From Thermoanaerobaculia bacterium (GTDB lineage Bacteria; Acidobacteriota; Thermoanaerobaculia; UBA5066): DNA of 64,000 nt. The position numbers and the translations under genes were made by a program. Location: positions 288,001 to 352,000 of the forward strand of contig CAWFJJ010000024.1 in the NCBI GenBank assembly GCA_963816185.1, read 5' to 3'. The notes beneath the pieces are model-generated. The model was not told the origin of the DNA. It was given only the letters and a program-made list of their open reading frames with translations, and did not search any database. Positions 45,976-50,975 of this stretch are shown here, piece after piece. Positions within the stretch are counted from its first letter, which is position 1, and each line of letters begins with the position of its first letter.

Positions 45976-47375
45976 ACGGTCGGGCACATAGGTAACACTT
46001 TAGTCCAGGCACATGGGTAACACTTATCAACAGTTACCTCGTCGTCGTCGTGCTGTGGAGATCGTGGAAATCTTCTTGCGTAGAGCTCTCAGCCCCGCGC
46101 CCAGTGCGGCCGCCGCGATGCCAAGGCCGGTGTTCATAGAAGGCTGCATAGAGTTTCTTGTCGCGCTCGTCGAAGCGCCCCAGCAGTAGCGAACCGAAGT
46201 ACAGGTTCCAGATGCCGTCGTCGACCTCCTCGAGCCCGACGTACTCGTCGATCAGGGGGTGGCTGACGCTGAGCCAGCCCGTCTTCCAGCGGATCCCGCC
46301 GTTGCGGCTGACGCGCCTGACCTCGAAGTGGCCCGGGTACTCGATGGGTGCGAGCTTGGACGGGAACGTGCGCAGTGAAGGACGGTAAAGATCGGCGGGC
46401 CGTTTCATGCCGATGCTTTCGTGGGGCCGCTCGGTGTTGAACTCCAGCTGGAAGGCGTCGAAGCGTTTCTGCTGGCCTCTGAGGTCGCGCCCCACGGGGT
46501 GAGTCGTCGCCCGCTTGAGCGTGCGATGCATCCTCTCGTGCGAGCCGTTCTGCTCGGGGTGGGCCGGCTGCGTGAGCTCGGGCCTGATTCCCAGCTTGAT
46601 CCACCACACCGAGAGGCGCGAGAGCCGCCCCAGGCCCGTCGACGCAAACGGAACCCCGTTGTCGCTTCGGATCGCATCGGGCAATCCATGTTCGCGAAAC
46701 AGCCGTTCGAAGCTTTTCTTCACGCCGTCCGCCTTCGTCGAGAGCAGCCCTCTGCACCCGATGAGGTATCGGCTATAGAGGTCGCTCACCGTCAGCGGGT
46801 AGCAGTAGATCCCGTCGCCCGTCAGGAACTCGCCCTTGAAGTCCGTGGCCCACAGCGCATTCGCCTTCTCAGCCACCGTCATCGGACGTCCCGGATGCCC
46901 GACGGGCCGTCTGCGGCGCCGCGCCTTCACGAGCCCGTGTCTCTTGAGAATCGCCGCCACCGTGCTTCGTGCCGGCCAGCTCGTCTCCTGGTCGCGCGTC
47001 GCCAGCACGTGGACGATCTTCTTCGGGCCCCAGTCGGGGTGTTTGCGTCGAAACTCAGTGATGGCCGACTCGACATCCCCAGCGGTCTGATTCGGGTGCC
47101 AGTGCGGCCGGCGCACCTGGTCCTCGAGCCCTGCCACACCTTCCGCCTCGAATCTCTCGATCCACTTGTAGAGCGTCTTGCGGCTCACGCCGTGCCGCTC
47201 GGCCAGAAACCTCACCGTGAAAAGCCCGCTTCGATAATCCACCAGGCTCTGCATCCTCTCGGCCACGGGTGTCGTCTCCTTCCAGGGCATCGGGCGTTTC
47301 TCCTCCCGCCCGAACTCTGCCCTGTGTCACCCATGTGCCTGGACCGTTCTGTAACCCATGTGCCCGGACTGAACC
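45973..47375 (-). mobile_element. IS481-family insertion sequence
   Basis: Two GGCACATRGGTAACA-like repeats at each end in inverted orientation; GGC on both flanks (45970-72, 47376-78). Confidence 0.85.
46034..47290 (-). CDS. IS481-family DDE transposase
   Basis: MPWKE start, HTH, WATDFKG, RSDNGVPF, QNGSHERMHRTLK, RPHE. Confidence 0.93.
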   Translation of the reverse strand: MPWKETTPVAERMQSLVDYRSGLFTVRFLAERHGVSRKTLYKWIERFEAEGVAGLEDQVRRPHWHPNQTAGDVESAITEFRRKHPDWGPKKIVHVLATRDQETSWPARSTVAAILKRHGLVKARRRRRPVGHPGRPMTVAEKANALWATDFKGEFLTGDGIYCYPLTVSDLYSRYLIGCRGLLSTKADGVKKSFERLFREHGLPDAIRSDNGVPFASTGLGRLSRLSVWWIKLGIRPELTQPAHPEQNGSHERMHRTLKRATTHPVGRDLRGQQKRFDAFQLEFNTERPHESIGMKRPADLYRPSLRTFPSKLAPIEYPGHFEVRRVSRNGGIRWKTGWLSVSHPLIDEYVGLEEVDDGIWNLYFGSLLLGRFDERDKKLYAAFYEHRPWHRGGRTGRGAESSTQEDFHDLHSTTTTR

Positions 47376-47412
47376 GGCAGCGCAGCCTAACAACGCGCTG
47401 CAGCGGACTTCC

Positions 47413-47707
47413 ATGAGAAGGCCGGTTGTTGTCAAGAGAGGGCGGAATCGCCGGTGGGAATCCCTGGGCTCGAGTGTGTCGCCGCGCTTCCATTCGCACT
47501 CGTATGGGCCGCGTCTTGTCGGCCTGGTGCATGAGGGGGTCTAGTCCGCAAGGGCGCTGCAATCTCGCTACCGGTGTTCCGCCCCGGGCCGAAGTCCGTG
47601 GGGACCGGAGTCCGCTGCGCAGTCGCCCTGACGGGGCGTTGACTCGAATTTGGGATAGCCACGATTGAACGCGTCCTCTCGCTGGTTCCTTTCTTTTTTG
47701 CCCTGTG
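47413..47707 (-). ncRNA. Predicted bridge/seekRNA of element A (ends approximate)
   Basis: Internal loop between stems 47552-60/47619-28 and 47571-75/47604-08 carries target-matching 10-mers. Confidence 0.8.
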
Positions 47708-48874
47708 TCAGGCCGCTGCGGCCGTGCCGTGAGGCGCAGGGGCCTTGCGTAGCGGCTCGTAGACCTCCGCGGTCCGCCACAGCCGATGCAGCAACACCGC
47801 GAGTTTTCGTGCGATGGCAATGACCGCCCGTTTCTTCGCATTGCGCTCTCCTCGGGCTGACAGCGCCAGGCCGGATCGTCTGAGGTCGCAGTCCGGCCCG
47901 AATGGCCCGAGGACGTACTGCGCCGACTGAACCAGAAGCCGGCGCAGGAAGTGGTCCCCCTCTTTCGTGATGCGCAGCTGCGGGTCCGAATCACCGCTCT
48001 GACTTCGCGAAGGTACGAGCCCAAGGTACGCCCCGACGGCCCGGCTCTTCCGGAATCGACCCGGATCCTCCAGCGTCAGGACGTAGGCCAGCGCCACGAT
48101 CGGGCCCACTCCTCCCACCTGCCTCAGCAACGCCGTCTCCGGGTACTTCTTCTTCCCCAGTTCTAAGATGCGCTTGTCGAGCGCCAGGATCTGTCTGGAC
48201 ACGACTTCGATCGTCGTCAGGACGTTCGACAACGCTTCGCGTACCTCCTCGGGAATCTCGCCCACCGCCTGGATGGAGAACGTCCGGGTCGAGCACTTCC
48301 TCAGGCGGTGTCCCGTCGCTTTGACCGCCCCGCGGACGTGGTTGACGAGCTGCGTCCGCGTCCTCACCAGCACATCGCGCGAGCGCAGGACGGCCATGTC
48401 CTGTGCGACGCTCTCGGGACGGTGCTCCACGGGGTACAGAAGCTTCGGGTCCAGCCGGGCGATCCGGGCCAGGGCCTCGGCATCCACACGGTCCTGCTTC
48501 CCACGGTTCTGGTAGATCAGCCGGGTCTTTCGGGGGTTGGCCACCAGCACCTCGTGCCCTAGCTCTTTCAGAAGGCGGCTCACCCACGGGGAATGCGTTC
48601 CCACCTCCAGCGCGATTCGCATTCCCACCGGCCCTTCGAAACGCTTCCGGATCCCTTCCAGAGTCGTCTGGGCCCTTCCACGCTCGACGACCATCCCATC
48701 TTCATCGAGCACGCAAAAATGGCTCGTCCGATCCCCCAGGTCTATTCCGACGGTCCACGTCGGACAAAAAGCCGGAAGGACGTTCACCACTTTGCCCGAC
48801 GTCAATCTCGCCGTCCCATCACTCCTCGTCGCCGTCCTCTCGCTCCCGCTCGTCCCGGTGCTACGCTTCCTCAC
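47708..48874 (-). CDS. IS110-family DEDD recombinase A
   Basis: VGIDLG, ALEVG, KQDRVDA, GVGPIVA, YLGLVP..SQSG, ARKLA. Confidence 0.93.
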   Translation of the reverse strand: MRKRSTGTSGSERTATRSDGTARLTSGKVVNVLPAFCPTWTVGIDLGDRTSHFCVLDEDGMVVERGRAQTTLEGIRKRFEGPVGMRIALEVGTHSPWVSRLLKELGHEVLVANPRKTRLIYQNRGKQDRVDAEALARIARLDPKLLYPVEHRPESVAQDMAVLRSRDVLVRTRTQLVNHVRGAVKATGHRLRKCSTRTFSIQAVGEIPEEVREALSNVLTTIEVVSRQILALDKRILELGKKKYPETALLRQVGGVGPIVALAYVLTLEDPGRFRKSRAVGAYLGLVPSRSQSGDSDPQLRITKEGDHFLRRLLVQSAQYVLGPFGPDCDLRRSGLALSARGERNAKKRAVIAIARKLAVLLHRLWRTAEVYEPLRKAPAPHGTAAAA

Positions 48875-48990
48875 GGCCGGTCTCCCTTCTGGGCCTCGAG
48901 CCCGCAATGTCCTTGCAGCGAATTTTCCGACTGCGCCGGGGAGACCGGCCTTCTCATCCCATCTCGCTACGCTCGCCGCTGAGCTTGCCC

Positions 48991-49204
48991 ATGAAGATTC
49001 CTGTCAAGCCCCTCGCTGAATAATTTCTTGCTTGCGCCGCACGAAACAGCCGGCCACTCGTCCATTCGGGGTCAGAGCCCCACGTATCACTTCAGCGGAT
49101 GGCGCCCCAAACGATATCCCGGGCTCTGCGGCCCAATGCTCAGCAGCAGGGTCATCCACCCGATTCTCGGCAAGATTTGCGGCGTGCTTTTCCTTTCTTC
49201 GTCT
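48991..49204 (-). ncRNA. Predicted bridge/seekRNA of element B (ends approximate)
   Basis: Target loop 49097-49157 and donor-like loop 49057-49089, with matches to the flanks and the circle junction. Confidence 0.72.
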
Positions 49205-50308
49205 TCAGCGGCTCTTTGCCGCTTGAGGTTTCAGTCGATAGATCCGGGCATCCTTTACCGCCGTGCGCGGCTCGTGGGCTTTCAGCATCGATCGATCAAA
49301 GCTCGTCTTGTCTCGAAGCATCGCGTAAAGAACCCGACAGAGACGATGCGCCACGGCGGTGACAGCGCGGCGTGTCCCCAGGCGCAACGTGAGAGTTCTC
49401 AGAAACGGATTCAGTGGGCTGCTTTGCCGCCTGGCCGTGTGAGCCGCCTGCACGAGCATGGCCCGCAGCTCGGGCGAACCCGTCCTGGTGATGTGGCCCT
49501 GGCGGTTCGTTTCGCCCGACTGGTAGGTTTGCGGGACGAGCCCCGCGTAGCTCGCCGCATGCTTGGCGGTCGGAAAGCGCGTGGCGTCTGAGAAGACAGC
49601 GATTGCCGTCAGCGCCACGATCTCCCCGACTCCTGGAACGGTTTTGAGTCTCTCGAGGTCTTCGCCGAAGGCGGCGTGCTGGCTTTCGAGGCTCTTCTCG
49701 CACGCGTTCTTCTGCTCGAGGGCAGTCTGCCAGGCGCGGTGGTGAAGCTCGACGTAGCTCCTTACCTGCGGATGTGGAACCAGGGCCCCAAGAAGGCGCT
49801 GCCACGCGCGAAGGGTCCCGAGATGCTGGCGGCTGAGCTCGGAGAGCCCCGCGCTCCGGAGCATCTTTTTCGCCGCGTTGATCTGCGCCGTCCCGAGACG
49901 CACGAAATGGCGGCGCCTCGAGAGGGTATTTCTAAGGTGCTCGATCTTCTCCGGCGGCACATGCACGATCGACCGGTAGATTCCACGCCGCAGGCCTTCG
50001 CACAGTTCAACGGCGTCTCTCGTGTCGCTTTTCTGCCGGGGCCGATGGGCTTTGATCCTGACCTCTCGCGCATCCACCACGACGGGTGAAAGCCCCAGCT
50101 CACTGAGCTTTCGCGCCGCAAAAAACGCCATCGTCCCCGATTCGAGAGCCACCAGCGTCGAGGCGCGAAGCTTGAAACGTAGCCGCAACGAGGAAAACCC
50201 TTCCACAGAGGTCGGCACCTCGCCTCGTCCCAGCTCCTCTCCCCGCTCGTTCTGAATCATGAAAACGCTCGACTTGCTGTGAACGTCCAGTCCCACATAA
50301 GATTTCAT
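49205..50308 (-). CDS. IS110-family DEDD recombinase B
   Basis: YVGLDVH, ALESG, KSDTRDA, VPGVG, YAGLVP..YQSG; GGGAGG RBS. Confidence 0.93.
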   Translation of the reverse strand: MKSYVGLDVHSKSSVFMIQNERGEELGRGEVPTSVEGFSSLRLRFKLRASTLVALESGTMAFFAARKLSELGLSPVVVDAREVRIKAHRPRQKSDTRDAVELCEGLRRGIYRSIVHVPPEKIEHLRNTLSRRRHFVRLGTAQINAAKKMLRSAGLSELSRQHLGTLRAWQRLLGALVPHPQVRSYVELHHRAWQTALEQKNACEKSLESQHAAFGEDLERLKTVPGVGEIVALTAIAVFSDATRFPTAKHAASYAGLVPQTYQSGETNRQGHITRTGSPELRAMLVQAAHTARRQSSPLNPFLRTLTLRLGTRRAVTAVAHRLCRVLYAMLRDKTSFDRSMLKAHEPRTAVKDARIYRLKPQAAKSR

Positions 50309-50470
50309 CGGGCTGTCCTCCCTTGCTTGGGGCACCTCCTCGGAGGTTGACCCCGTTAAACTTGTGGCCCGATTCTTCGGTGACCACGTCGGCGAGGACA
50401 GCCCTTTTCTCGTCTTCATTGAAACGATATCGTTAGACGCCGGAAGGTAAAGCAGAGCTAGAATCTCCTC

Positions 50471-50692
50471 ATGTCGCTCGAACTGACCGCCGTCTTTCAG
50501 CAGGTGCCTGAAGGCTTCATCGCCTTTATCGAGGAGCTTCCGGGTGCGAACTCGCAGGGAGCCACGCTCGAGGAGGCCCGTTCAAACCTGCACGAGGCGG
50601 TAACGCTGGTTCTCGAGGCTAATCGCGCCCTCAGCGAGCAGGCGCTCGCGAACGCCTCGGTCATTAGGGAGCGTTTCAAGATCTCGGCGTGA
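50471..50692 (+). CDS. hicB: Cassette 2: HicB-family antitoxin (short, no DNA-binding domain)
   Basis: ELPGANSQGATLEEARSNLHEA. Confidence 0.88.
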   Translation: MSLELTAVFQQVPEGFIAFIEELPGANSQGATLEEARSNLHEAVTLVLEANRALSEQALANASVIRERFKISA

Positions 50693-50880
50693 AGCGCGCC
50701 GAGCTCATTCGTCACCTCGAACGCCATGGCTGCCAGCTCCTTCGCGAAGGCGGCTCGCATACCGTGTACGTCAATCGGCCCGAGCGCAAGGTATCTACCA
50801 TTCCCCGGCATCGCGAGCTCAACGAATTCCTTGCCGTCAAGATCTGCAAGGACCTCGGCGTCCCGAAGCCCGGCGTCTAA
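50689..50880 (+). CDS. hicA: Cassette 2: HicA-family mRNA interferase
   Basis: LLREGGSH..IPRH..ICKDLG; stop codon lies within GTCTAAC of attC2. Confidence 0.9.
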   Translation: MKRAELIRHLERHGCQLLREGGSHTVYVNRPERKVSTIPRHRELNEFLAVKICKDLGVPKPGV

Positions 50881-50918
50881 CAACGCGCTGCAGCGGACTC
50901 GTCGTCAGTCGCTGCGCT
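50875..50918 (+). other. attC2, left arm only (truncated)
   Basis: GTCTAACAACGCGCTGCAGCGGACTCG is nearly identical to the attC1 left arm; no GCTGAGC..GTTRRRY follows. Confidence 0.75.
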
Positions 50919-50975
50919 TAACTCGCTGCAATCTCTCTCCCAGGATCGCTCAAACCCAGATGGAGGTCGAAGACC

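Follow-up and report, generated by a model that had tools for sequence, protein, structure and literature searches.

The 64,000-nucleotide stretch considered here (the window; G000:C24:288001-352000) comes from a soil Thermoanaerobaculia bacterium of the phylum Acidobacteriota, the assembly of which (G000) is 94.9% complete and comprises 30 contigs. It harbors a 60-nt repeat with the layout of an integron cassette recombination site (attC), which is split into three fragments by two different insertion sequences (IS), designated A and B. The fragments of the interrupted site and the components of the two elements are the following:

47385..47409, plus strand: attC fragment 1, comprising R'' (GCCTAAC), the spacer, and L'' with 5 nt, as far as the insertion point of A
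47410..48964, minus strand: element A, an IS1111-type IS of 1555 bp; its low end is its right end and its high end is its left end
47410..47707, minus strand: non-coding region of A, a predicted seekRNA/bridge-RNA gene, downstream of the transposase gene
47708..48805, minus strand: transposase gene of A (Pfam DEDD_Tnp_IS110, 7.8e-20; Transposase_20, 1.9e-18)
48965..48987, plus strand: attC fragment 2, the central part and L', forming the 23 bp between A and B
48988..50426, minus strand: element B, an IS1111-type IS of 1439 bp with 7-bp repeats and 3-nt and 7-nt extensions
49205..50308, minus strand: transposase gene of B, encoding 367 amino acids, with an ATG at 50308 after GGGAGG (Pfam Transposase_20, 5.2e-24; DEDD_Tnp_IS110, 1.1e-13)
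50427..50438, plus strand: attC fragment 3, the remaining spacer and R' (GTTAGAC)

The transposases of both elements combine an N-terminal DEDD_Tnp_IS110 domain with a C-terminal Transposase_20 domain, each scoring over the Pfam curated cut-offs. In A, the open reading frame extends to 48907, with a likely start at a TTG or GTG near 48787-48805, since relatives align from residue 50. Element A carries perfect 14-bp subterminal repeats at 47413-47426, 3 nt from its low end, and at 48944-48957, 7 nt from its high end, while B carries perfect 7-bp repeats at 48991-48997 and 50413-50419, at the same respective distances from its low and high ends. PMC11187229 gives as marks of IS1111 elements a 7-bp extension on the side of the transposase (tnp) start, a 3-bp extension on the other side and a longer non-coding region downstream of tnp. 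The extensions of 7 and 3 nt are present in A and B in the correct orientation relative to tnp, and in each element the longer non-coding region lies downstream of it (298 nt, with ~160 nt upstream, in A; 217 nt, with 118 nt upstream, in B). Domains, subterminal repeats, extensions and downstream non-coding region therefore all fit the IS1111-type assignment made in the initial annotation, and the rule it had read from both ends of both elements, with the repeat 3 nt from one end and 7 nt from the other, holds for A and for B. It had also described the transposases as divergent and the repeats as different, which agrees with an amino acid identity of 29% over 349 residues and with repeat lengths of 14 bp versus 7 bp. 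As regards the coordinates given for the deletion of A, the ends are indeed present where they had been placed, but the boundary is not exact, being ambiguous by 2 nt because CT is common to the flank and to the end of the element; the boundary of B is ambiguous by 1 nt (G). These shared nucleotides make up the core positions of each insertion.

Removal of 47410-48964 and 48988-50426, with the three fragments joined by coordinates in a script, yields the 60-nt site. When searched with nhmmer using an attC-like profile derived from 16 repeats that are uninterrupted in this genome, the rejoined site scores 70.9 bits (E 2e-24), and the uninterrupted sites of the genome score at most 66 bits on that profile. 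The reconstruction is also confirmed without any deletion, since two further copies of B (C25:608486 and C25:610468) adjoin a left attC half that is intact and continuous across the point at which A has inserted in the window. The rejoined fragments thus agree with the 60-bp attC that had been proposed, with A inserted on the inner side of L'' and B, 23 bp away, between L' and R'.

Both elements are specific for these positions. All six full copies of B in this genome, which are 99-100% identical and are accompanied by fragments, have the same L' motif on one side and the same spacer and R' motif on the other; their left attC halves are fully intact in two cases, carry a degraded R'' in one, are reduced to a bare half-site of ~25 nt in one, and follow A or an A remnant in the remaining two. 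Among eight copies of B in five other genomes (two in G007, one each in G016 and G009, and two in each of two metagenome-assembled genomes), the right flank is of the same class in 8/8 and the left flank in 7/7 copies whose left end is available. For A, the eight copies found in seven congeners (83-87% amino acid identity) all abut the right flank AGTCCGCTG, as does the copy in the window. Every copy of A and of B is antisense to the orientation of the attC, so that the antisense placement relative to the cassettes noted for the window proves general. Within the genus, 25 genomes were searched with both proteins, of which nine contain A and four contain B, the two occurring together only in G000; when B was sought in 29 genomes of the genus, 4 contained it.

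The co-occurrence of A and B in one site is not confined to the window. At C24:735 kb, a 72-nt remnant of A, itself disrupted by a further IS, precedes an attC segment unlike that of the window, after which comes a full copy of B; this is an independent double hit on an attC and bears out the earlier claim that the two elements can stack in the same site. Stacking is possible because the two sites lie 23 bp apart and the guides described below do not overlap, so that one insertion spares the target of the other.

Several features of individual copies may be mentioned here. The six near-identical copies make B look recently active in this genome. Element A is represented by two full copies and by two left-end remnants (119 and 72 nt); in the second full copy (C7:315-1869), tnp contains an in-frame TGA and both the right end and its flank are altered, and the copy in the window may be the only intact one. 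The bare half-site is occupied by a full B at C25:393112-394551, where 13 nt on the L' side and 12 nt of spacer and R' flank the element and the left arm is unrecognizable; a stretch of ~25 nt is therefore a sufficient target for B. In the copy of B on G016:C122 (L040/L050), the left extension is 8 nt long, in place of the usual 7 nt, and is identical to the initial 8 nt of the right target flank, which suggests that target sequence may replace the terminal extension of the element, or else that the region exchanged may exceed the dinucleotide core.

Relatives of A and B at moderate distance use other targets. For A, both of the relatives examined at 58-60% identity (G029 and G031) have non-attC targets, consisting of a GC-rich palindrome without attC cores and located far from the integron integrase gene (intI) of their genomes. 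Relatives of B at 55-62% identity are numerous in metagenomes, and 80 of these loci were fetched with their alignments; an ATGAAG-type repeat pair at IS-like spacing was found in 59 of the 80, and attC-like flanks in 0/59. Most often they target short palindromes of the form ...GCCC/CGGGG.... Many of these relatives (L082-L107 and others) sit mid-way in short perfect palindromes of the type CAACTTGCCC/CGGGGCAAGTTG, the stems of which differ from copy to copy, and the wider clade of B accordingly looks like a large family of hairpin-targeting elements that may be rich in guide-target covariation. Two distant relatives of B retrieved in a scan of the phylum were truncated or decayed, without a right end; one of them comes from an unpublished genome (G194), on which none of the conclusions depends.

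The simplest reading of these data is that attC specificity was acquired separately in the lineages of A and B, because the two transposases are so divergent and because the closer relatives of each use non-attC targets. This is the independent convergence on one attC family that the initial annotation had put forward. It has to be weighed against a single ancestral specialization, in which A, B or both would be members of the monophyletic IS1111-attC group already described (ISPst6, ISPa21, ISKpn4, ISPa25) and a shift of sub-site would have occurred later. Members of that group share the antisense orientation of A and B: ISPa21 and ISPst6 are described in PMC3001079 as a monophyletic subgroup, with insertions that lie close to the 5' end of attC and run antisense to the cassettes. 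The most diverged pair of known IS1111-attC elements cited in PMC11187229, however, is 46% identical, compared with 29% for A and B, and therefore at most one of the two could fit within the range of the known group. A tblastn search of both transposases against 72,556 plasmid records returned nothing above 36% identity among the matches listed, the presence of the known elements in those records being unverified. Together with the non-attC targets of the closer relatives of A (58-60%) and of B (~55-62%), these values make a single origin unlikely.

How the two elements might recognize their positions is suggested by their downstream non-coding regions. In each of them, two segments match the two flanks of the insertion site, and are interpreted as the putative guide segments of a predicted RNA:

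47608..47618, minus strand: 5' guide segment of A, 11 nt, the complement of the right flank, the core and 1 nt as read on the element-sense strand (11/11 match)
47562..47571, minus strand: 3' guide segment of A, 10 nt, ~40 nt after the 5' guide, in the same sense as the left flank and core (8 nt)
49136..49147, minus strand: 5' guide segment of B, 12 nt, the complement of the right flank (L' region) as read on the element-sense strand
49108..49119, minus strand: 3' guide segment of B, with the sense of the core and of the final 5 nt of the left flank (the spacer by R')

The 3' segments run on into the left end of the element itself, over its first 4 nt in A and over its first nucleotides in B. 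In IS1111 seekRNAs, as set out in PMC11187229, the match to the top strand lies 5' of the match to the bottom strand and the two overlap at the insertion point; at the level of sequence, the guide-like matches of A and B show that order and that overlap. Compared with its own site, the non-coding region of A contains an 11-nt match, a length reached in 1 of 1000 dinucleotide shuffles, and that of B a 9-nt match, reached in 19 of 1000, whereas the cross-matches between each non-coding region and the site of the other element are at chance level (897 and 359 of 1000 shuffles). A consensus fold computed with alifold from 12 sequences places both guide segments of A in a loop closed by a conserved stem.

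The guide segments vary along with the targets in both families. Over 9 nt, the 5' guide of B matches its target at 9/9 positions in seven of the eight copies outside G000 and at 8/9 in the remaining one (L054), and four variants of this guide (GAGCUU, GAACUC, GAACGC and GAGCGC) track four variants of the target. The 3' guide of B occurs in two variants, GAUAU and GAUAC, of which GAUAC is found only in the two copies with the target GATAC. The 5' guide of A and its right flank are invariant in the genus, with 11/11 matches in the window and in the seven congeneric copies with a full flank, and 10/10 of the available positions in G019. In G029 and G031, which belong to another family, the same scaffold contains a different 5' segment, and this segment matches their own differing, non-attC right flank over 10 contiguous nt. 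The 3' guide of A varies within the genus, tracking the left flank in G020 (9/9) and partly in G021 (7/9). This guide-target covariation is the strongest evidence that A and B are programmed by guide RNAs, and it lends support in both families to the RNA-guided targeting proposed initially.

Taken together, A and B are very probably separate IS1111-type elements, each guided by RNA to its own fixed position of one attC family. Under this model, each DEDD recombinase would insert its element at a fixed, element-specific position of the attC, antisense to the cassettes. The downstream non-coding region would most likely give rise to an RNA of the seekRNA or bridge type, with an internal loop presenting the two guide segments, the 5' segment pairing with one strand of the right target flank and the 3' segment pairing with the other strand of the left flank and continuing into the left end of the element. 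Element A would in this way be programmed for the inner side of L'' and B for the spacer between L' and R'. The RNA would be made and would guide recombination, and the circular-intermediate mechanism would be expected to apply to both elements.

An alternative is that the target is chosen by the proteins or by the shape of the hairpin, and that the matches in the non-coding regions are by-products, such as copies of the junction left by transposition. Flank and element end together, the left junction is matched by the 3' segments too, which might be relics of this kind, and the left extension of the G016 copy of B indicates that target sequence can enter an element. Against this, the matches lie at fixed places in a conserved scaffold, ~100-210 nt from the element end, they involve both strands in the order and overlap reported for IS1111 seekRNAs (PMC11187229), and segments are exchanged as units where the target differs (G029 and G031). 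Seven IS110/IS1111 elements are moreover listed as experimentally RNA-guided in a table of PMC13604230. Recognition by protein or shape is consequently considered very unlikely, and programming by guide RNA remains the preferred explanation.

A number of observations nevertheless weigh against the reading of A and B as RNA-guided IS1111-type elements specific for attC. The subterminal repeats of IS1111 elements are usually 11-13 bp long (PMC11187229), with a range of 7-17 bp quoted in PMC11208160, so that the 7-bp repeat of B is at the bottom of that range. In G000 the 5' guide of B has one mismatch (8/9) to all six targets that it occupies, and the agreement of the 3' guide of A with the left flank is poor in several copies (5/9 in G011a and in G031, 6/9 in G011b and G015); the latter segment may tolerate mismatches or contribute little. 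Single-sequence folds of the non-coding regions of A and B are no stabler than those of shuffled sequences (z -0.15 and +0.09), no Rfam family matches these regions, and the one RNA run listed (X20) contained only 5% of the sampled words. The covariation counts represent few evolutionary events among kin, and not many independent trials. Finally, no intI over the TIGR02249 cut-off was found in the G000 assembly, at the completeness and contig number given above, and the attC label in this genome rests on sequence, on a predicted fold and on congeners.

The last of these points raises the question of whether the 60-nt repeat might be a palindrome of the repetitive extragenic palindromic (REP) type, in which case A and B would be ordinary REP-targeting IS1111 elements like ISPa11. 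Besides the lack of an intI over the cut-off in G000, the scatter of the repeats over at least 10 contigs and the short palindromes targeted by relatives of both elements would be in line with this possibility. The attC core consensus is RYYYAAC for R'' and GTTRRRY for R', and both core motifs are present in the rejoined site. Folded with DNA parameters, the bottom strand is predicted to form a hairpin in which the R box and the L box are paired, the spacer is unpaired and two bases bulge out on the '' arm, and L'' and L' show paired changes across the alignment of the 16 full sites. The profile search of the genome gave 40 hits at E values up to 1, of which 32 are below 0.01 and lie on 10 contigs; most of the hits are clustered, lie 0.5-1 kb apart and share one orientation, and small genes, hicBA for example, are located between them. 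An exact-pattern search for CTAAC...GTTAG found no uninterrupted site in the window, the profile search being required. The window itself contains one interrupted full attC and one degenerate half-site, and the other clusters of the genome comprise 4-6 sites each. CALINs, attC clusters that have no integron integrase, are defined by at least two attC sites without a nearby intI (PMC4889954). No relevant family was matched in Rfam, which holds no attC family.

Evidence from related genomes points in the same direction. Of 41 genomes searched within the order, 31 contain an intI passing TIGR02249, and the 24 congeners among them contribute 17 of these (29/39 when the unpublished genomes G025 and G030 are left out of the count for the order). 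In three congeners (G011, G008 and G007), the same repeat occurs in arrays that start ~0.8-1.6 kb downstream of a bona fide intI and reach up to 9 kb, and relatives of A or B are located within these arrays. Core motifs, predicted fold, clustering in one orientation around small genes, and arrays next to intI make the REP interpretation highly improbable, and the repeat is taken to be an attC. An intI may have remained unassembled in G000, since several of its arrays sit at contig ends. In the three congeners the cassette array begins downstream of intI and shares its orientation (G011:C1:1104000-1118000, G008:C13:562000-571164 and G007:C2:417000-430500; L066-L068), unlike the arrangement in class 1 integrons. 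This arrangement resembles that of "inverted integrase" chromosomal integrons.

The continuity of the locus was assessed with public contigs from four runs of one study, which may include the source sample of the window and hence provide independent assembly, but not independent sampling. A contig of 1634 nt (X2 record 15) corresponds to 48726-50359 with 5 differences, taking in 239 nt of A, the 23 bp and 1372 nt of B, and another of 1601 nt (X1 record 3) corresponds to 47387-48987 with 1 difference, covering the left attC arm, all of A and the 23 bp up to the boundary of B; a third (X4 record 26) ends 29 nt into B. That the order A-23 bp-B is an assembly chimera of separate repeats, a suspicion fed by the repetitive nature of A, B and the attC, by the many public contigs that break at their ends and by contigs in which the right end of A is followed by an uninterrupted right attC half (an arrangement that also fits a remnant on C2), is scarcely credible in view of the two contigs that bridge the junctions and of the second, non-identical doubly hit attC at C24:735 kb. 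A further contig (X4 record 31; window 50426-50772, 8 differences in 347 nt) has the hicB side after an uninterrupted L', and is a B-free allele, that is, a natural empty site for B, in a related strain. Joints that skip A in the public contigs were considered as evidence of excision and rejected, their short side being 18-23 nt of attC sequence common to many sites.

With respect to known systems, the closest parallel is the IS1111-attC group (ISPst6, ISPa21, ISKpn4, ISPa25 and ISUnCu1), the members of which, like A and B, are IS1111-type, attC-specific and antisense to the cassettes. The seekRNAs of ISKpn4 and ISPst6 have been demonstrated experimentally, and ISKpn4, ISPst6 and ISPa25 all use one and the same site (PMC11187229). 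In the table of PMC13604230, where the targets of these three elements are listed, the insertion point is 6 nt from a GTTAG, and the target of ISKpn4 is given as ...TTGAA/CGAATTGTTAG. Reading this target in the orientation of the element, we infer that the known insertion point is the R''-L'' spacer. Such a reading agrees with the attC sequence of aadA. Whereas the known members share that single point, the 60-nt site is entered by A after nt 25 and by B after nt 48, the position of B mirroring the known one on the opposite arm of the hairpin. The initial annotation had not remarked on this difference of both sub-sites from the published one. The hosts also differ, the known elements being from Pseudomonas or clinical integrons and A and B from Thermoanaerobaculia. 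Integron arrays can reportedly contain several IS1111-attC copies and decayed remnants, as Tetu and Holmes are said to have noted in 2008. No description of other attC sub-sites for IS1111 elements was found in the literature searched, most subscription journals being out of reach.

Other systems share part of these properties. IS1111 elements that target REP sequences or other palindromes, such as ISPa11, have the same anatomy and the same two-segment seekRNA logic as A and B, and, beyond the sets that target attC, the closest relatives of A and B likewise sit in short palindromes; unlike elements of the ISPa11 type, A and B target sites of integron recombination, which has a bearing on the mobility of cassettes. 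The bridge recombinases IS621 and ISCro4 of the IS110 group (8wt6, 9t56) also combine DEDD and Transposase_20 domains with an RNA loop that carries guides for the left and right target, but their similarity to A and B is remote (E 1e-6 to 7e-9) and limited to the C-terminal part. The continuation of the 3' segments of A and B into the left end resembles the handshake pairing reportedly described in the IS621 structure papers. IS621 has its RNA gene upstream of tnp and subterminal repeats of 2-3 bp (PMC11208160), whereas in A and B the non-coding region lies downstream and the repeats measure 14 and 7 bp. Group IIC-attC introns, which home to attC in antisense orientation (PMC3001079), share this feature with A and B, but are retroelements with a ribozyme and have no such recombinase. 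No new mechanism is revealed; what is new here is that a known phenomenon reaches two further attC sub-sites, two further lineages and a further phylum, together with unusually clear natural guide-target covariation.

Insertion at these two positions may matter for the integron. Element A parts the arms of the hairpin and B parts R', which contains the IntI cut site, from the rest of the site, and therefore the attC should no longer fold or recombine. The split attC would thus be unusable by IntI, and the hicBA cassette downstream of it would be fixed to its upstream neighbor. Since no intI is found in G000, this block would be without present effect, unless an integrase lies in a gap of the assembly. 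More broadly, insertions like A and B would weld neighboring cassettes together and fragment arrays, and such fragmentation may help to explain the scattered, integrase-less clusters of this genome. The attC is also attacked at more than the one described sub-site, in environmental chromosomal integrons of Acidobacteriota and by lineages in which the specificity arose separately.

The two families constitute a natural guide-target data set, from which the positions that are read and the mismatches that are tolerated might be deduced. It includes four right-guide and two left-guide variants for B and, for A, one full retargeting and several left-guide variants. A and B are also candidates for an orthogonal pair, although so far only their targets are shown to differ. 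A broader proposal, which we advance tentatively and regard as somewhat short of an even chance, is that the attC hairpin might offer at least three landing sites (the R''-L'' spacer, the inner side of L'' and the L'-R' spacer) that were colonized independently by different IS1111 lineages through rewriting of two short guides, that guides tracking the target from species to species within Thermoanaerobaculia might reflect a contest between integron and IS, and that A and B might be mutually orthogonal, with strand exchange over as many as 8 nt, in place of a 2-nt core, hinted at by the G016 copy of B.

The surroundings of the interrupted site include three further features:

45981..47367, minus strand: IS481-like element (Pfam rve, HTH_32 and LZ_Tnp_IS481), with approximate boundaries; copies and inverted repeats were seen
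50471..50880, plus strand: hicB-hicA toxin-antitoxin cassette, downstream of the interrupted attC (Pfam HicA_toxin, 6.7e-12)
50872..50930, plus strand: degenerate next attC (nhmmer E 0.0043, profile positions 2-38)

In the hicB-hicA cassette, the Pfam matches to HicB-like and UPF0150 are under the curated cut-off. The degenerate attC retains its left half, has an unrecognizable right half, and contains the stop codon of hicA within its R''. The IS481-like element stops 17 nt short of the R'' of the interrupted attC, and the unit formed by this element, the following 17 nt and the left arm of the attC occurs at least four times at 99% identity, at the following locations:

window 45981-47409
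C24:740735-742111
C25:606545-607976
C25:611931-613310

Either this IS prefers the end of the cassette just upstream of an attC, or a cassette bearing the IS was copied; a possible CTGAAC duplication flanks the copy in the window. A third kind of IS in the same hairpin is seen in G008:C13 (L067), where a 1.25-kb element with IS3-like frames (567082-568330) lies in the center of an attC of the array beside intI, a few nucleotides from the position at which A inserts, and is flanked by an apparent CTC duplication.

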